In this document: positions 1 through 10,217 of the stretch, one piece after another | Layout: each line of letters starts with the position of its first letter | How positions within the stretch are numbered: the first letter of the stretch is position 1 | DNA from: Candidatus Saccharimonadota bacterium | Lineage (GTDB): Bacteria > Patescibacteriota > Saccharimonadia > Saccharimonadales > UBA4665 | NCBI GenBank assembly: GCA_963716945.1 | Contig: OY970322.1 | Location: 480,001 to 512,000 of the forward strand | DNA length: 32,000 bases | Direction of reading: 5' to 3' | Notes under the pieces: model-generated | The model's input: only the letters and a program-made list of their open reading frames with translations | Told to the model about the DNA's origin: nothing | The model's database searches: none | Position numbers and translations under genes: made by a program

Positions 1-1
1 C

Positions 2-1552
<1,551 letters not shown>

Positions 1553-2851
1553 TTGCGCCACACTGTTACGGAAGCCCGCCTTAACAACGGCGCCCGGGGG
1601 CTGCTGATCCATATTCCGCACGCTTCGGTCATGACCGTCGACATTAATTTCCGGGCCGGCGAATACCTGGTCGAGCCTGACAAGTGGGAAGTGCCGCACC
1701 TCATGGAACACGTTTTGCTGGGGGCCAACGAGCTGATTCCGCGGGCCCGCGACTTCCAGGCCGAACTCGAGAAAAACGGCGCTTACAGCAACGCCACGAC
1801 TGGTGTTTACGACATTAATTACGAGGCCGAATGCGCCGACTTCGAGTGGGACCGGGTGCTTGGCTTGCTGCTGGTGGCGATCACCAAGCCGCTGTTTCTC
1901 GAGGAAGAATTCCGGGCCGAGTTCGGCAATGTCCAGGAGGAAATGGCGGCCCGCAGCAACAACCACTTCCGCCGCTTGAGCCTGGAGATGCGCGGGGCTT
2001 TCGGCCTGATTGCCAAGACCGACACCGAGCGTTTGGAGCTGATGTCCAATGTCAACGTCGATGACGTCAGGGAACATTACGAGCGCACGCACTATGCTTC
2101 CAATATGCGCTTTGTCATCGCCGGCAACCTGTCGGCCAGCCGGCGGGCGGCGATTACCTCGCTGCTCGAAAACATTGATTTACCGGTCGGCGAGCGGCGC
2201 TTCGATTTGCCGCAGGAGCGGCCGGAACGTCTAGAGCAGCCGGTTTACGTGGCCAATGACACCGTCGAGAACCTGTACTTCTATATTGATACTTTCATGA
2301 ACCGCCGGCTGGCCGACCCCGAAGTCGACGCCCTCAGCCTGGTCAACACCATGCTGACCGAAACGCTGTACTCCAAGATACTCGGCACCGCCCGCGAGCG
2401 CGGCCTGGTTTACGGCATGAACTCCGGCCTCAGCCAAACGCGCGATGCCAGCAATTGGTGGTTCGGCGCCCAGGTATCGGACAAAAACGCCCAGCCGCTG
2501 CTGCAGATAATCGTCGACGAACTGCTCAAAGTCAGGGCGGGGGACATCACCCGCGACGAAATCCAGGCTACCAAACAGTACGCCCTCGGCCGCTTCCAGC
2601 GCAGCGCCCAGACGGTTGGCGGCACCGCGGCCGGCTACGCCGGCCGCTACTTCTTCGATGGCGTCATCGACGACTATTACCACTGGCCGGCCCGCATCCG
2701 GGCGGTCACCAAACAGCAAATCGTCGACATCTCTAATTCCATGTTCGCCCCCGGTATCTGGGGCTTCGGTACGCTCGGCAATTGCGGCCCGGAATTCGCG
2801 GCCGAACTGCAGGCCCAGATCAGCGGCCTATGGCTCCAGCGCCCTGATTAG
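1553..2851 (+). CDS. M16 (pitrilysin) family zinc peptidase
   Basis: HxxEH zinc motif (HLMEH, residues 49-53) in the expected N-terminal position. The 432-aa length fits the family. The TTG start directly abuts the secA stop (TAG-TTG), suggesting translational coupling. Confidence 0.85.
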   Translation: MRHTVTEARLNNGARGLLIHIPHASVMTVDINFRAGEYLVEPDKWEVPHLMEHVLLGANELIPRARDFQAELEKNGAYSNATTGVYDINYEAECADFEWDRVLGLLLVAITKPLFLEEEFRAEFGNVQEEMAARSNNHFRRLSLEMRGAFGLIAKTDTERLELMSNVNVDDVREHYERTHYASNMRFVIAGNLSASRRAAITSLLENIDLPVGERRFDLPQERPERLEQPVYVANDTVENLYFYIDTFMNRRLADPEVDALSLVNTMLTETLYSKILGTARERGLVYGMNSGLSQTRDASNWWFGAQVSDKNAQPLLQIIVDELLKVRAGDITRDEIQATKQYALGRFQRSAQTVGGTAAGYAGRYFFDGVIDDYYHWPARIRAVTKQQIVDISNSMFAPGIWGFGTLGNCGPEFAAELQAQISGLWLQRPD

Positions 2852-4324
2852 GGTAGGTAACTGGTCTTCCGGCTTGGCCTTTAGAATTAGCGGCGAGGTT
2901 TCCCGTTTATAAGCCAGCAGACGGCCGGTAATGGTATTGGCGCTGCCCTCGGGCGTTTGCACGTAATCCCAGAACGCTTGCAAGTGTTCATGGTAGGTTC
3001 TGATCAGCCTGTCTCGGAATTCTTTGGGATCCATACCCTTGGGCCGCACCATGGCCGAAGGCGCCAGCCGCCGGATTATCTTGGCCTGGTCCCGGTCCAA
3101 GGTGGTCATGCTAACCATATCCTCGGGCGCGTCGCTAACAGCCGAAATGCCCAGCATGCGGCCCGGCACGCCTAGGTCGTATAACGCTACCTGCAGGTCG
3201 AGGGCCTTCTGCCTGAGCCCGGTGTCTTCCAGGGCGCCGGTCGACGTCGATAATATGTGCTCGGCTATGGGCAGCTGCTCCGGGTCCATAATTTCTTCGA
3301 TGATCCTGATGCCGGTGTGGGTTTTGGTTTGGTGGGCGGGGTCATCCAGCCCGGCCTCGGCTATCATATATAAGCCGTCTATGAACTTCTTCGGCTGCTC
3401 AGCGGCAATTTTCTGCATGGTGGTCGACAGGACTTCGCGGCCGGTAGACATGACCATGACCAGTGCCCAGTCGTGGACGTCGTGCTTGGTCGATTTATCC
3501 AAGTCATCGACCGTCAAATCGGCTTCCAGCCGGTAAGCTATGTCCATCCAGCGGCTTGCCAGTTCCGGCGACAGTTCCGCCGGGGAATAGAAACTCTTGA
3601 GCACGACCTCCAAAACATCGCACATTATCCGGTTGGCATAAGCGACAGACGGGTTTTCGGGCGTCGCCTGGTGGCCGCCGCCATCGTCGATTAACCTGGC
3701 GACCATCAAGTCGTTAAGCATGATGGCGGGGTCATACATATATTGCCGGGCCCGTTTGGCGACGTTCGCCTGGTAGGTTTTATTGCCTTCGTTAGTGGCC
3801 AGGCTGCCGTCATCACCCTCGCTTATGACGAGATCTTTACTCAACAGTATAAAGCTCGAGGCGTCCAAAGGCTCGGCCGTGCCTTTGGGGACGAAGCCTT
3901 CGATGGTGGCAGCGACAGAATGCTCGAACCGGGACCGGTAGGCGGCCTGCTGCGCTTTTTGTTTGGCGAGCTCCGATTGGATGCCTGACACGGCAACCGC
4001 GGCGCCGTTTTCGGCGGCCACCCGGGCCGCGGCGCTGGCATAGGATTCGCCGGTTTCGGTCCGGGCCGCCCGGACTTCTTCTTGGCCCTTAAACCTGGCA
4101 TGGGCCCGGTTAATATTGCGGCGCAACGCCGAATCTTTGGGTCCCAGCGCCTGCCGTTTCAGCCATTGCAGGCCGGCGAAAGCCAGGCTGCCGTCAATCG
4201 GCTCTTCCAGCGCCCTGGCCTTGGCCTCGTTCGGGTGCAGGGAAAGGAAATAAGCCGACTCCAGCCCTTCGACCACGGCCCGGCTGCTGACAAAACCGTT
4301 TTCCGGCCCGACCATGGCGAACAT
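2828..4324 (-). CDS. Hypothetical protein, paralog A of a tandem pair (ORF as called from an internal Met; see 4325-4517)
   Basis: 498-aa ORF with multiple blocks of similarity to the 4615-6081 product (for example QPKKFIDGLYMIAEAGLDDP vs QPDQFIDKAYMIAQQGLDPE, and TGRLLAYKRE vs YGRLLAFNET). I recognise no domain. The 3' end overlaps the convergent M16 gene by 24 nt. Confidence 0.8.
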   Translation of the reverse strand: MFAMVGPENGFVSSRAVVEGLESAYFLSLHPNEAKARALEEPIDGSLAFAGLQWLKRQALGPKDSALRRNINRAHARFKGQEEVRAARTETGESYASAAARVAAENGAAVAVSGIQSELAKQKAQQAAYRSRFEHSVAATIEGFVPKGTAEPLDASSFILLSKDLVISEGDDGSLATNEGNKTYQANVAKRARQYMYDPAIMLNDLMVARLIDDGGGHQATPENPSVAYANRIMCDVLEVVLKSFYSPAELSPELASRWMDIAYRLEADLTVDDLDKSTKHDVHDWALVMVMSTGREVLSTTMQKIAAEQPKKFIDGLYMIAEAGLDDPAHQTKTHTGIRIIEEIMDPEQLPIAEHILSTSTGALEDTGLRQKALDLQVALYDLGVPGRMLGISAVSDAPEDMVSMTTLDRDQAKIIRRLAPSAMVRPKGMDPKEFRDRLIRTYHEHLQAFWDYVQTPEGSANTITGRLLAYKRETSPLILKAKPEDQLPTLIRALEP

Positions 4325-4517
4325 CGACGATTCGGCCGTGACGACGTAGTCTCCTTCGCCCGTGCCTTTGGTGAAGCCCGGATTGCTGGAATAGGCTACA
4401 TGTGGCGGCTTGGCCTGCGGATCGGTCCAGGCATCATAGCCGACATGGTCAAATCGGTCGCGGGGGGGGGGTCAAACCACTACTATCCCCTATGGGTTCC
4501 AGAACTTCAGCACTCAT
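4325..4517 (-). other. Displaced 5' segment of paralog A: promoter-proximal ATG (4517) and 64 codons separated from the main ORF by a 1-nt frame offset at the C10 tract
   Basis: The main frame is open upstream to 4471 with no start codon. ATG 4517 opens MSAEVLEPIGDSSGLTPPP and then terminates at 4449-4451. Deleting one C fuses the two frames into about 562 aa, with an N-terminus that parallels paralog B. Confidence 0.7.
4462..4471. repeat. G10 homopolymer (C10 on the coding strand), nt 47-56 of the reconstructed paralog A CDS
   Basis: Counted directly: c + 9 g in block 4461-4470, plus g at 4471. It is the longest homopolymer I noticed in the window. Confidence 0.95.
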
Positions 4518-4527
4518 ATAAACATCA

Positions 4528-4556
4528 ATTAAAGCATGAATAGCCTCATAATGCAA
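4528..4556 (-). promoter_or_regulatory. Promoter of paralog A: TTGCAT-17-TTTAAT, whose last two spacer bases plus C form the TGC of an extended -10 (TGCTTTAAT); 10 nt to ATG 4517
   Basis: Minus strand reads TTGCAT (plus 4551-4556) and TGCTTTAAT (plus 4528-4536). The same TGCTTTAAT module lies upstream of paralog B. Confidence 0.6.
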
Positions 4557-4614
4557 CACCTAGCCATCCGTCCGGCCCCGGATTGAAGCGCCATGGCTTT
4601 TCCCGAGCGGCAGG

Positions 4615-6081
4615 TTAGTGCCTTGTTGCCAAGCGGTGCAGGAAGCGCCTAAACGGCGCCTTTAGCGCTGCACGCATTAATTCAGCATACTGCCTTTCTT
4701 CAGTTTCGTTAAAGGCCAAAAGACGTCCATAAAGAGTGTCCTTTTTGCCGCGCGTCGTATTCACGTATTTCCAAAATGAATCTTTCGGACCGGTGAAACC
4801 GATATCGCTCCTCAGCAACTCTTCCGGTACGCCTAACTTCCCCAGTGTCAGCTTAAGGTCAAGGGTACGCATTGCGGTTCGGCCGTCGCTGCCCTCTCTT
4901 AGATAGAGGCGGGGCAGGCGGCTCTTGGCGCCCAAGCCGTATTTGAGGATGGAGACGGTTATATCCACCTTTGCGCGGTTTTCGGGGTCTAGGCCTTGCT
5001 GCGCTATCATATAGGCCTTGTCAATGAACTGGTCTGGTTGCCGTAGGGCGACGCGGTGCAAGCTTCTGGCCAGAATTTTGCGGCCGTGCAACATTGCCAA
5101 GCCGGTCGCCGAATAGCCGTTAGCAATGCCGTCCTGGCCTAGAATGTCGGCCGTTTCAGTGGGCGATATGTCGGCCGGCAAGGGCCTTGCCAGCTCCAGC
5201 CATTTAGCCACGGTTTCGGCGGTTAGCTGGTCTGCTACATATACTCTTTCCATCAACATGTTAGACAGGGCTGAGAATATCGCGTCGATGCCGGCTTTTG
5301 ACGGATCATCGCCAGCCTGTTCGCTGGCCATGCGGACCGCTTCGGCACGCAATAACGTCAGCACCTCAAAATCATTGACCAATAGCTGAGGGTCATCCAT
5401 AAAGGTTTCCGTCTGGCGGGCAAGCTCGGTCTTGAAACCTTGCTTGGCATGGACGGAAAAATCACGACCCGAACGGTCTATGACCAGCTCTTCGCTTAGG
5501 GCCGTGAAGTTACCGAAGTCCAGGTGAGGAGAGTCCTCGCGAACTTGGCCGATCATTGTCCGGAAACGCTCGCCGTAGGCGGCCTGCCGCTGGGCTGTGG
5601 TTTCGCGGTTGCGCCTGTCGGCCGCGCTAGCGGCGGCTTGCTCGATCGCCAATTCGTCTCGTTGCGCCGCTACATGCCGGTTGTAGGCCTGGGCGCGCTG
5701 GCGGGCCGGCAGCATGGACTTAGCGCCCAATACGGCGTGCCACAGGTAGGGATGGCTATCCTCTGAGACATAGTCTCTCAGCCAGCTCAAGCCGGTTTTA
5801 GCTCCGTCGAAGTCGAAATCATCCGGATGAGCGGCTTTTACGTGGCCTTCCGCTTCGGCGTTCTCGGGATGATCTTCCACATAAACGGCGTCCATGGCTG
5901 CCACCAGGCCGGGCCGGTTAAACATTGACTGTCCGGCTGATTTTATGGGGTGGTCCGTAGGGACCAGCTCTAACGGATCAGGGTGCAGGGTAACGACTAC
6001 CAGCGAGCGGGCGGCCCAATAGTCGACATAGTCTCTATGGTCTTGAAGCATCTCTTGGTAACTATCTGGACCGGCACGCAT
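4615..6081 (-). CDS. Hypothetical protein, paralog B of the tandem pair
   Basis: 488-aa ORF homologous to paralog A along most of its length. No signal peptide, TM segment or known catalytic motif recognised. Visibly AT-richer than the flanking genes. Confidence 0.85.
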   Translation of the reverse strand: MRAGPDSYQEMLQDHRDYVDYWAARSLVVVTLHPDPLELVPTDHPIKSAGQSMFNRPGLVAAMDAVYVEDHPENAEAEGHVKAAHPDDFDFDGAKTGLSWLRDYVSEDSHPYLWHAVLGAKSMLPARQRAQAYNRHVAAQRDELAIEQAAASAADRRNRETTAQRQAAYGERFRTMIGQVREDSPHLDFGNFTALSEELVIDRSGRDFSVHAKQGFKTELARQTETFMDDPQLLVNDFEVLTLLRAEAVRMASEQAGDDPSKAGIDAIFSALSNMLMERVYVADQLTAETVAKWLELARPLPADISPTETADILGQDGIANGYSATGLAMLHGRKILARSLHRVALRQPDQFIDKAYMIAQQGLDPENRAKVDITVSILKYGLGAKSRLPRLYLREGSDGRTAMRTLDLKLTLGKLGVPEELLRSDIGFTGPKDSFWKYVNTTRGKKDTLYGRLLAFNETEERQYAELMRAALKAPFRRFLHRLATRH

Positions 6082-6093
6082 AACTAAGTGTTA

Positions 6094-6122
6094 ATTAAAG
6101 CATAAAATATGTTCTAAAGCAA
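6094..6122 (-). promoter_or_regulatory. Promoter of paralog B: TTGCTT-17-TTTAAT, whose last two spacer bases plus C form the TGC of an extended -10 (TGCTTTAAT); 12 nt to ATG 6081
   Basis: Minus strand TGCTTTAAT corresponds to plus 6094-6102, and TTGCTT to plus 6117-6122. It is divergent from the prfB promoter. Confidence 0.55.
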
Positions 6123-6148
6123 GGAACAGGGCTTTATAAAGATGAGCT

Positions 6149-6157
6149 TGCTATACT
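6149..6157 (+). promoter_or_regulatory. Extended -10 promoter of prfB (TGcTATACT), 7 nt before ATG 6165
   Basis: TG at 6149-6150 and TATACT at 6152-6157. No Shine-Dalgarno sequence can fit in the remaining 7 nt. Confidence 0.6.
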
Positions 6158-6164
6158 TTGAGAT

Positions 6165-7250
6165 ATGGAAGAACAGCGTAAACAGGCCGGAGCTTTGCAG
6201 TCGCAAATCAATCAGGCTGCAAGCCGGCTCAAAATTGATAGCCTTGGGCAGCAGCTTGAAGATCTCCAGGCCGCCAGCCGCCAGCCCGGTTTCTGGGACG
6301 ATTCGGCCAAGGCCCAAGGGGTGATGAAGCAGATCGCCAAGCTCGAAGACCGGACCAAGCCCTGGCTGGCGCTGCAGAAGGCGATCGAGGAAGTTAACGA
6401 ATTGCTCAAGCTTGGCGATGCCAGCCTGGCTGAAGAATTGGCGGTCCAGCTCCGGCAGGCGCAGGAGACGTTTGACGGGCTGAAGGAAGAACTGAAGTTC
6501 AACGGCCCATATGACGGGCATGACGCCATCGTCAGCATCTATGCCGGCGCCGGCGGCACCGATGCTCAGGATTGGACACAAATGTTACTCAGAATGTACA
6601 GCCGCTATTTCGAAAAAAACAGATGGAAGGCGACTACCGTAGACGAATCGCCCGGCGACGAAGCCGGCCTGAAGAGCATCACGCTGGAGGTCGAAGGGCC
6701 GTTCGTTTACGGCAAATTGAAGGGCGAGCACGGCGTCCACCGGCTGGTGCGGCTCAGCCCGTTCAATGCCGACAACTTGCGCCAGACCAGTTTCGCCAAA
6801 GTCGAAGTCATGCCCAAGCTGGACCGGCCCGACGACCTCCAAATCGACGACAAAGACCTAAAAGTCGACGTTTACCGCAGCGGCGGCCACGGCGGCCAAT
6901 CGGTCAACACCACCGACTCGGCCGTCCGCGTGACCCATATCCCGACCGGCCTGACAGTCGCTATCCAGAACGAGCGTTCGCAGCTCCAGAATAAGGAAAC
7001 CGCCATGACCATCCTGCGCTCGCGGCTGGCCCGGCTGCAGATGGAACAGCACGCCGAAAAACTCAGCCAGCTGAAAGGCCCTAACCAATCGGCCGAATGG
7101 GGCAACCAGATTCGCAGCTACGTCCTCCACCCCTACAAACAGGTCAAAGACCTGCGCACCAAATACGAGACCTCGGACCCCGACGCCGTCCTCGACGGCG
7201 GCCTCGACCCGCTGGTTAACGCTTACCTGGAACATACCCTCGAATCGTAA
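6165..7250 (+). CDS. prfB: Peptide chain release factor 2, uninterrupted ORF
   Basis: SPF tripeptide (LSPFNADNLRQTSFA) specific to RF2, the GGQ motif (SGGHGGQSVN), and 361 aa. No internal in-frame stop or +1 frameshift site. Confidence 0.95.
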   Translation: MEEQRKQAGALQSQINQAASRLKIDSLGQQLEDLQAASRQPGFWDDSAKAQGVMKQIAKLEDRTKPWLALQKAIEEVNELLKLGDASLAEELAVQLRQAQETFDGLKEELKFNGPYDGHDAIVSIYAGAGGTDAQDWTQMLLRMYSRYFEKNRWKATTVDESPGDEAGLKSITLEVEGPFVYGKLKGEHGVHRLVRLSPFNADNLRQTSFAKVEVMPKLDRPDDLQIDDKDLKVDVYRSGGHGGQSVNTTDSAVRVTHIPTGLTVAIQNERSQLQNKETAMTILRSRLARLQMEQHAEKLSQLKGPNQSAEWGNQIRSYVLHPYKQVKDLRTKYETSDPDAVLDGGLDPLVNAYLEHTLES

Positions 7251-8975: not shown

Positions 8976-9022
8976 GCTCCCCGCTAAATAATAAAAGGGG
9001 GTACAGACTTGATTAACCGTAG

Positions 9023-9028
9023 TATAAT
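9023..9028 (+). promoter_or_regulatory. Candidate -10 box (TATAAT) for the CHAP hydrolase gene
   Basis: Perfect TATAAT lying inside the ORF-track N-terminal extension (TTG 9009). This argues that ATG 9057 is the real start. Confidence 0.45.
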
Positions 9029-9056
9029 AAAGAGTAGAACTAGCCAAACCAAGACC

Positions 9057-10217
9057 ATGTCAAAAACAAAATCAATTGCCGGTTACTATTTCAAGCTACG
9101 CACCCTGTTATTGCTGTTGACGTTAGGCGGTTTGATGGGTGGCGCTGCGATTGCTCACGCCGACCAGTATGATGCTCAGATCAACTCTCTGCAGAACCAG
9201 AACAACCAGACCCAAAGCATTGTAAGCGGCTTGGCGGCCCAGGCGGGTAGTTATCAGGGGGCGATCAATGTCCTGCAAGGCCAAATAAGTTCGCTGCAAG
9301 CAGCTATACAAGCCAACCAAACCAAGCAGACCGCCATGCAGCAGCAGATTACGGCTGACCAGCAGCAGATTGACCAGAAGAAACAACAACTCAGCGCTAC
9401 TATCAAATCCTTGTATATAGACGGCCAGACCTCTACCATCGAAGAACTGGCCAGCAGCAAAAACCTCAGCGACTATGTCGACAAAGAAGAGTACCGCACC
9501 GCTGTCCAAAACGAGTTAGATGCCAGCATTCAAGAGATCGGCGAGCTGCAAACGCAACTGCAGCAGCAAAAAAGCCAACTCGATGTCGTAGTCAAATCCG
9601 AACAGCAGCAGAACGACCTGCTGGCTAGCGACCAATCCCAACAACAACAGATGCTGGCTTACAACCAGGATCAGCAGGCCGCCTACAATGCCCAAATTGC
9701 ATCTAACCAGAGCAAGATAGCTTCGCTTCGTGCGGCCCAGGCTGCCGCAAACCGCCGCCTGGACGGTTCAGGCCAAATCATCACAAGTGGGTCTTGCGGC
9801 GGCAGCTACCCGGCTTCGGCATCCGGGTCTTACGGCCCATGGGGATGCAACTATGCACACACGAGCGATAACGTACCCGGCTGTTCGTATCAAGATAGCT
9901 GGGGCATGTGCAATCGAGAATGCGTTAGTTATACGGCCTGGATGGTATATAAGACGTATGGCATAAACACTACCGGTTTCGGTAACGCCAATCAATGGCC
10001 GGGCAGTGCCGCGCGGGCAGGTATTCCAACCGGAAGCACGCCTAAAGTCGGCTCAGTTGCAATCTACACGGGAGGCGCATTTGGCCATGCGATGTGGGTT
10101 GTCGGCGTAGATGGCGACCAAGTACATGTTTACTCGTATAACGACGAGTATGATGGCAATTTTTATGATCACTGGGTTAGCGCATCCGGTCTGACCTATA
10201 TCTACTTCGGCGGTTAA
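9057..10217 (+). CDS. Secreted coiled-coil + CHAP-domain peptidoglycan hydrolase (PcsB-like); ORF track start 9009
   Basis: From ATG 9057 there is a signal-like N-terminus (MSKTKSIAGYYFKLRTLLLLLTLGGLMGGAAIAHA). About 230 aa of Q-rich heptad-like sequence follows. The C-terminal CHAP signature has a Cys in NRECVSYTAWMV and a His in FGHAMWVVG. Confidence 0.8.
   Translation: MSKTKSIAGYYFKLRTLLLLLTLGGLMGGAAIAHADQYDAQINSLQNQNNQTQSIVSGLAAQAGSYQGAINVLQGQISSLQAAIQANQTKQTAMQQQITADQQQIDQKKQQLSATIKSLYIDGQTSTIEELASSKNLSDYVDKEEYRTAVQNELDASIQEIGELQTQLQQQKSQLDVVVKSEQQQNDLLASDQSQQQQMLAYNQDQQAAYNAQIASNQSKIASLRAAQAAANRRLDGSGQIITSGSCGGSYPASASGSYGPWGCNYAHTSDNVPGCSYQDSWGMCNRECVSYTAWMVYKTYGINTTGFGNANQWPGSAARAGIPTGSTPKVGSVAIYTGGAFGHAMWVVGVDGDQVHVYSYNDEYDGNFYDHWVSASGLTYIYFGG

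Follow-up and report, generated by a model that had tools for sequence, protein, structure and literature searches.

A recombining and possibly phase-variable slot for an unannotated protein family between the M16 peptidase and prfB genes of Saccharimonadales

The window analysed here is a stretch of 32,000 nucleotides from a Candidatus Saccharimonadota genome (GenBank assembly GCA_963716945.1, contig OY970322.1, positions 480,001 to 512,000 of the forward strand), and coordinates below are counted from its first letter. Antisense between an M16 peptidase gene and the release factor gene prfB, it carries two adjacent genes, A and B, that belong to an unannotated protein family we call X. We favour, with a probability of roughly 55%, the reading that they occupy a recombining, probably phase-variable locus for a non-enzymatic binding protein. 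X would then serve as a binding or scaffold protein whose partner keeps changing, and allele cassettes would be exchanged by recombination across conserved flanks, with secA and M16 on one side and the prfB core and ftsE on the other. In A-type genes, slipped-strand mispairing in a poly-C tract would turn translation on (C9) or off (C10). In the window genome A would be off and B would be the expressed working copy.

Gene B (4615..6081, minus strand) is an intact B-type gene of 488 amino acids, and its start codon is backed by the conserved MR(A/D)GP start in a related locus, L001. Gene A is present in the assembly, by open reading frame (ORF) list and translation, as an ORF of 498 amino acids (2828..4324, minus strand). 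Its full length is 2828..4517 on the same strand, with a start ATG at 4517 and a product of 562 amino acids if the tract is C9. BLASTP aligns the two proteins over 358 amino acids at 27% identity (E 7e-27), and overall identity is 27-30%. A sequence-only reading of this DNA had described two homologous minus-strand genes, and the matching blocks it listed lie inside this alignment. It had also called them the sole minus-strand genes of the first 15 kb, which is true as far as 15.8 kb.

Pfam matches give the gene order secA (38-1552, plus strand), M16 (1553-2851, plus strand), A, B, prfB (6165-7250, plus strand, 361 codons), ftsE, ftsX, a CHAP-domain gene and ctp, which encodes an S41 Ctp protease. 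The earlier placement within a secA-prfB-ftsEX-ctp block agrees with these neighbours, with M16 as a further gene between secA and prfB. Its framing in terms of Bacillus-type genomes does not hold, as the M16 matches identify the host as Candidatus Saccharibacteria. The window belongs to the chromosome of a member of this group (Saccharimonadales) from soil or peat. The convergent 3' ends of A and M16 overlap by 24 nt (2828..2851), as had been reported. An overlap is likewise seen in most relatives, and measures 24 nt in L002, 21 nt in L001, 39 nt in L004 and 36 nt in L008.

The X genes are accessory. An M16-alignment scan of GTDB genomes returned more than 569 relatives, and the best 80 of these, Saccharibacteria/Saccharimonadales-type metagenome-assembled genomes at 64-82% identity, served as reference loci. 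M16 and prfB are both on the contig in 78, and M16 is followed directly by prfB in 64 of them. The rest have short gaps (4 loci) or inserts of more than 0.8 kb (10 loci), and X makes up two of those ten inserts. Because M16 and prfB are adjacent in 64/78 loci and X is present in only 2/80, we conclude that X is an accessory gene that recurs in a slot of variable content, and not a one-off insertion. The sequence-only reading had proposed an accessory pair acquired by insertion. This survey of related genomes shows that the pair is not universal, and the accessory part of the proposal stands; a single insertion event does not, given that X always sits in this slot.

Indeed, X has the same position in all 13 distinct loci with readable context, antisense between the M16 gene and prfB. 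These are the window, L001/J3T (L001 and a 64-kb contig, JGI 3300067032), L002, L003/L092, L004/L005, L006, L007/L025, L008, L021, L090, L091, L093 and L094. The order is always prfB, X, M16, secA, with X pointing away from prfB and towards M16, and with prfB, M16 and secA all on the opposite strand. L093 and L094 hold very distant X members, and their release factor 2 (RF2) proteins are only 53-61% identical to that of the window. One X gene is found in L001, L002, L003, L004, L006-L008, L021 and L091, and two are found in the window and in L090. The L090 pair (L090:4315-7485, JGI 3300037258) is a second case of diverged copies in the slot, at 31% identity, and its order is opposite to that of the window, with the B-like copy next to M16 and not prfB. 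This opposite order points to repeated shuffling. On an M16 tree, X-bearing loci are interleaved with X-free ones. We conclude that X is confined to the Saccharimonadales lineage of the window and to one slot.

About eight reference loci carry unrelated cargo in the same slot, among them L019:7267-10171, L020:7343-11428, L076:7423-8751, L084:7309-8799 and L088:7342-8499. This cargo includes a pilin-like gene with a 744-amino-acid membrane protein, a PPDK-like gene (1102 amino acids) with a regulator, and Gly-rich/Pro-rich proteins. Furthermore, L076, L084 and L088 hold three antisense orphans of 385-496 amino acids. These were considered as very distant X homologs and rejected, as both hmmsearch and hhalign were negative.

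Gene A is frameshifted relative to its orthologs. A run of ten C (4462..4471, minus strand; G10 on the plus strand) lies in codons 16-19 and puts the gene out of frame, splitting it into a 22-codon ORF from ATG 4517 (MSAEVLEPIGDSSGLTPPP...) and the 498-amino-acid ORF at 2828-4324. The frame upstream of ATG 4324 is open back to the run, and the frame from ATG 4517 ends just past it; deleting one C restores the 562-amino-acid product. The orthologs in L002 (L002:9833-11521) and L003 (L003:748-2430) are uninterrupted, encode 560-562 amino acids and start MSAEV(L/I)(Q/E)PI... The true start of gene A is accordingly 4517 and not 4324. The sequence-only reading had missed the frameshift relative to these orthologs. 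In a DNA alignment the tract is C9 and in frame in L002, L003 and L092, and C10 in the window and in L089. L089 is a separate assembly (run ERR11523672) that matches the window without any difference across B and A, C10 included, and the frameshift is therefore not an artefact of one assembler. The tract is limited to the A-type subclade.

Such a run is exceptional in these genomes. Among 89 loci, amounting to 1.07 Mb of Saccharimonadales DNA with the window included, G/C runs of 8 or more occur three times, each at this tract site. About 31 are expected under a model of independent, identically distributed bases, and 17-22 in first-order Markov simulations. Long G/C homopolymers are thus strongly depleted in these Saccharimonadales genomes. 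The rest of gene A is intact, without other stops. Compared with L002, its ratio of nonsynonymous to synonymous divergence (omega, dN/dS) is 0.155 at a dS of 0.85; the other flanking genes have dS values of 0.46-0.64 against L002, the low-GC3 (G+C at third codon positions) CHAP gene included. A long G/C run in early codons of an otherwise intact gene, with one-base length differences, is the classic anatomy of a contingency locus. Gene A has such a repeat in its 5' coding region, and the length of the repeat differs between relatives in a way that switches the frame. The tract may be phase-variable and switched by slippage, for which we put the odds just short of even. Full-text literature searches turned up no report of simple sequence repeat phase variation or homopolymeric tracts in Saccharibacteria.

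Gene A could instead be a plain pseudogene that decayed after B made it redundant, or C10 could be a consensus error, with no switching in either case. An intact paralog does adjoin it, the out-of-frame length is seen in one organism only, and assemblies are error-prone in homopolymer lengths, with consensus sequences being the data here. Against this, A has no defect besides the tract, its omega resembles that of intact orthologs, and the same C10 recurs in a separate assembly. At least nine C are kept in four loci while the genomes avoid such runs (3 observed, 17-31 expected). Codons 16-19 are also the usual position for translational phase variation. We regard decay or error as unlikely, though it deserves serious attention.

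Gene B has a different origin from its neighbour. Nucleotide homology between the window and L002 runs from position 1 to 4585 and resumes at 6146, and gene B is absent from L002. In a sliding window, identity to L002 is 0.87-0.94 over secA and M16 and about 0.75-0.78 over A. It is 0.60-0.67 over the first part of prfB (6146-6520) and reaches 0.93 from about 6540. The proteins behave alike: the window and L002 share 63% identity in RF2 residues 1-125, where L002 and L003 share 82%, and from residue 126 to the end the window and L002 reach 97-98%. Synonymous divergence from L002 is saturated over prfB codons 1-120 (dS 2.16) and 0.39 over codons 121-361. The prfB gene of the window is thus a mosaic, with a breakpoint near 6520-6560, at the start of the conserved RF2 core. 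Across Saccharimonadales, the N-terminal domain of RF2 is hypervariable (57-66% amino acid identity between most loci, compared with 80-98% for the rest of the protein).

Because the linked 5' part of prfB has a dS of 2.16 versus 0.39 downstream, we conclude from these sequence comparisons that homologous recombination with a divergent relative brought in B along with about the first 120 codons of prfB. The imported segment (about 4586..6530, some 1.95 kb) comprises gene B, the divergent promoter region and these codons. For the 5' part of prfB the best match is L001, at 74% over the 146 nt that this locus covers. We consider the genomic architecture and its explanation by recombination highly probable. 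Recombination tracts in these genomes can thus end inside an essential gene and leave a mosaic release factor. The sequence-only reading had also argued for acquisition from a much higher AT content of B. This argument is weak: G+C is 56.8% in B, 59.3% in A, 59-62% in the neighbours and 57.8% in the rest of the window, and local AT-richness in gene B is limited to its 3' end.

The pair had been described as tandem paralogs, and an in-situ tandem duplication in an ancestor, followed by loss of A in the L001/L004 lineage and of B in L002 and L003, would also leave two homologs side by side. In the family tree, the A-type clade (window A, L002, L003) is indeed sister to a B-side clade (window B, L001, L004, P0004, P0005), a second genome, L090, has two copies in the slot, and the same promoter-like motif precedes both genes. 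The nearest relative of A is L002 (77%), though, and that of B is L001 (64%), which is not the pattern of a local tandem duplicate. The saturated prfB segment linked to B speaks for import rather than co-residence. Local duplication also requires that close relatives (M16 identity 89-97%) lost a copy, precisely and independently, at least three times, and the B-like copy next to M16 in L090 shows an arrangement that was not inherited from a single duplication. We therefore hold local duplication to be improbable; an old A/B duplication somewhere is possible, and the present pair is not a local duplicate. When its N-terminal region (residues 1-55) is compared with L001:231-290, window B is longer than L001 by a stretch of about 33 residues.

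X changes quickly under constraint. Across eight loci, M16 identity is 78-97% and X identity falls to 20-30%. The window A protein is 77% identical to that of L002 (M16, 97%) and 64% identical to that of L003 (M16, 92%), and the window B protein is 64% identical to that of L001 (M16, 89%). Orthologous X pairs have dN values of 0.13-0.25, compared with 0.018-0.069 for M16 in the same genome pairs. Omega for X is 0.12-0.17, and 0.20 for L002 versus L003. X is hence a real coding gene under purifying selection that changes 4-7 times faster than M16 and the neighbours. The orthologs are too few for site tests of selection.

The X family is small and unannotated. An exhaustive HMMER search of 1.84 billion representative proteins with a profile of A, B and the database protein P0001 found 50 representatives at E<=1e-3 and 22 at E<=1e-30, with lengths of 440-580 amino acids, and all named members are 'hypothetical protein'. 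A word-index search with B had found P0001 as the single homolog (64% identity). The database version of P0001 is called 19 codons too short. Neither A nor B matches Pfam, NCBIfam, PADLOC or PHROGs, and across 47-48 family members these libraries gave single-member weak matches, none of them consistent. Against PDB sequences the best match of the family profile was a coiled-coil stretch at E 0.008, which is nothing real. Scans of GTDB genomes with the A/B profile, whose patterns were too specific, and of viral contigs found no relatives. Transmembrane segments and signal peptides are absent from 49 family sequences (Kyte-Doolittle 19-residue maximum <=1.66). N-termini are polar and acidic and the isoelectric point is about 5. 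We conclude that the members are soluble, acidic proteins of about 450-580 amino acids; they could still be exported by a non-classical route.

An AlphaFold model of B from a 48-sequence alignment has a pLDDT of 85.8 and a pTM of 0.73, and replaced a three-sequence model (pLDDT 70) for which Foldseek was uninformative. It shows a disordered N-terminus (1-55), short helices, a long helix of about 73 residues (111-183), a beta-hairpin (199-212) and a helix bundle that extends to the C-terminus. The X protein is thus predicted to be all-alpha with one beta-hairpin. With a fold match taken as E<=1e-3 and a TM-score of about 0.5 or more, Foldseek found none in the PDB (best E 0.18, TM 0.19) or BFVD (best E 7e-3, TM 0.13). 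P, G, L, W, A and F account for most conserved columns. Among polar residues D408 alone is invariant and D90, D237, D354, T449 and R453 are frequent, and the conserved residues include no His/Cys/Ser constellation or obvious catalytic set. The disordered N-terminal region of most members contains an (R)AAYSSNPGF motif; this motif was lost in the B lineage, and gene B lacks the AYSSNPGF motif accordingly. We infer that X is a binding or scaffold protein and not an enzyme. The sequence-only reading had seen no signal peptide, transmembrane helix or catalytic signature and could place the proteins in no family, and the scan of 49 sequences, the conserved residues, and the profile and Foldseek searches, which returned no characterised family, all agree with it.

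X could also be single-gene anti-phage or anti-competitor cargo of a defence hotspot in this inter-operon slot. Defence islands are typically patchy, occupy a fixed slot with alternative cargo, and hold fast-evolving, recombining genes; X has all of these traits and perhaps a phase switch. The proteins themselves do not fit: each PADLOC model matches at most one of 48 members, through weak coiled-coil matches; there is no nuclease, NTPase, TIR, Sir2 or transmembrane effector domain; and the conserved residues do not look catalytic. Other cargo of the slot, such as the pilin-like and PPDK-like genes, is not defence-like either. A defence role of this kind therefore seems quite unlikely.

The frameshift in A might be bypassed, with transcriptional slippage or programmed ribosomal frameshifting yielding some full-length protein. 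Such bypass has been described for homopolymer-interrupted genes of reduced-genome endosymbionts, and here a 10-nt tract precedes an intact, constrained frame in a genome reduced to about 1.1 Mb. Rescue by slippage is known mostly for A/T runs, though, and the orthologs are in frame with C9 and do not need a bypass in general, which makes this explanation very unlikely. It is most improbable that X is a passenger or enzyme of a site-specific mobile element targeting the M16/prfB junction: the insertion point is identical in lineages with RF2 only 53-61% identical and the site is precisely empty in close relatives, but there is no transposase, integrase or HNH-type domain, no flanking terminal inverted or direct repeat beyond chance and the promoter motif, and no X copy outside the slot in any locus, and homologous recombination in the conserved flanks explains the exchange more simply.

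Several observations weigh against a recombining, switched locus for a binding protein. There is no gene-wide sign of positive selection in X (pairwise omega 0.12-0.20); its divergence is spread along the whole protein and mean omega is well below 1. With no signal peptide, transmembrane segment or known secretion or anchor motif, exposure to host or phage is not evident, and the function given to X is one that we infer from sequence. The presence/absence pattern relies on an M16 tree built by neighbour joining from a single gene, which is weak evidence. No donor of the imported segment was found among the loci compared. The out-of-frame tract length comes from one organism and from consensus assemblies, and L089 probably derives from the same sample as the window genome and so is no biological replicate.

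For an epibiont, the most plausible partner of X would be a component of the host cell, of a phage or of a competitor, and we suggest a role at the host or phage interface only tentatively. At its most speculative, X would be a new-fold class of soluble interaction proteins of soil Saccharibacteria, shuffled by recombination and switched by poly-C, that helps decide which host or phage is engaged; we give this extended proposal a low probability.

The genes are preceded by promoter-like elements. A putative extended -10-like element, TGCTTTAAT, lies 10 nt upstream of the gene A ATG (4528..4536, minus strand) and recurs upstream of gene B (6094..6102, minus strand), where it was also picked up as a repeat within the window (D13). 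The motif TGnTTTAAT precedes the start codons of A, B and the X genes of L001-L004, L007, L090 and L091 by about 10-14 nt; in L006 and L008 it precedes the called start by a greater distance. A TATACT -10-like element (6152..6157, plus strand) lies 7 nt upstream of the prfB ATG, and together with the gene B element it forms an 83-nt divergent promoter region of 30% G+C. X-bearing relatives share the conserved block GCTATACTTTG. No promoter emerged from a plain sigma-70 consensus scan. A separate promoter for each gene, as claimed earlier, is plausible in view of the conserved TGnTTTAAT, and it finds no backing in the sigma-70 scan. The TGnTTTAAT and TATACT elements are putative promoters with very short leaders that would give near-leaderless mRNAs, and the TATACT element only 7 nt before the ATG suggests that the prfB mRNA may be leaderless. 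The insertion parts prfB from the secA-M16 block, so that the divergent region, which the cassette seems to bring with it in compact form, would also have to drive prfB.

The neighbouring genes have features of their own. The M16 peptidase carries an HLMEH zinc motif, retains 78-97% identity where the adjoining X gene has only 20-30%, and directly follows secA in 80/80 reference loci. A functional link between M16 and X through N-terminal processing was considered and dropped, as M16 occurs in every relative but X in only a few. The prfB gene is one unbroken ORF of 361 codons without a programmed +1 frameshift site. The CHAP-domain gene (9009-10217), downstream of ftsEX, has the lowest GC3 of the block (0.59) and diverges faster than ftsE and ftsX (57-89% versus 85-99% amino acid identity between loci); it may encode a PcsB-like hydrolase controlled by FtsEX. 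The remaining window encodes housekeeping functions, including pyrG, xseA, recO, a class II aminoacyl-tRNA synthetase, an aldehyde dehydrogenase and a PIF1-type helicase, and tRNA and Rfam scans of the window gave no match.

Saccharibacteria are ultrasmall epibionts, and to our knowledge little has been established about the molecules behind their host range. Confinement to one lineage, a recombining slot, fast evolution, alternative alleles and the sole long homopolymer make up the usual signature of an arms race or of partner recognition. X is therefore a testable candidate for such a role, and the tract in gene A one for phase variation in a bacterium of the Candidate Phyla Radiation (CPR). 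If X is indeed a shuffled, switched host-engagement protein, this would be the first contingency locus described in the CPR. X also adds a confidently modelled protein without a structural neighbour in the PDB or BFVD.

In its genomic behaviour the locus resembles known contingency genes and cassette loci, and its protein resembles nothing in the libraries searched. The nearest structural comparison is with helical-repeat scaffolds (ARM/HEAT/TPR-like), which are the top, non-significant Foldseek matches of the X model (TM 0.19-0.21, best PDB E 0.18). The model shares with them an all-alpha architecture with stacked helical hairpins in the C-terminal two-thirds, and differs in its 73-residue helix, its beta-hairpin and the disordered N-terminus with AYSSNPGF. 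The gene neighbourhood is Firmicutes-like, with the order hpf, secA, (M16), prfB, ftsE, ftsX shared by the window and its relatives. In the window lineage, unlike in that neighbourhood, M16 lies between secA and prfB, a CHAP gene follows ftsX, and prfB has no programmed frameshift.

Phase-variable poly-G/C contingency genes are known from Campylobacter, Neisseria, Haemophilus and Helicobacter. Like them, gene A has a 9-10-nt G/C run in its first 20 codons, one-base differences toggle the frame, the rest of the gene is intact, and the genome avoids such runs. X differs in having no surface, lipooligosaccharide/capsule or restriction-modification signature and in its CPR episymbiont host, and the length differences of gene A are known between relatives, from assemblies. 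Cassette loci exchanged by homologous recombination include the pneumococcal cps locus between dexB and aliA and O-antigen clusters. Unlike these, the X slot holds one or two genes and not a biosynthetic cluster, and it splits a co-directional secA-M16-prfB block, with cargo that brings its own putative divergent promoter region. It shares with them a fixed slot with alternative contents (empty, X type A, X type B, two X genes or unrelated cargo), a breakpoint inside a flanking core gene, and an adjoining flank, here the RF2 N-domain, that is more diverged.

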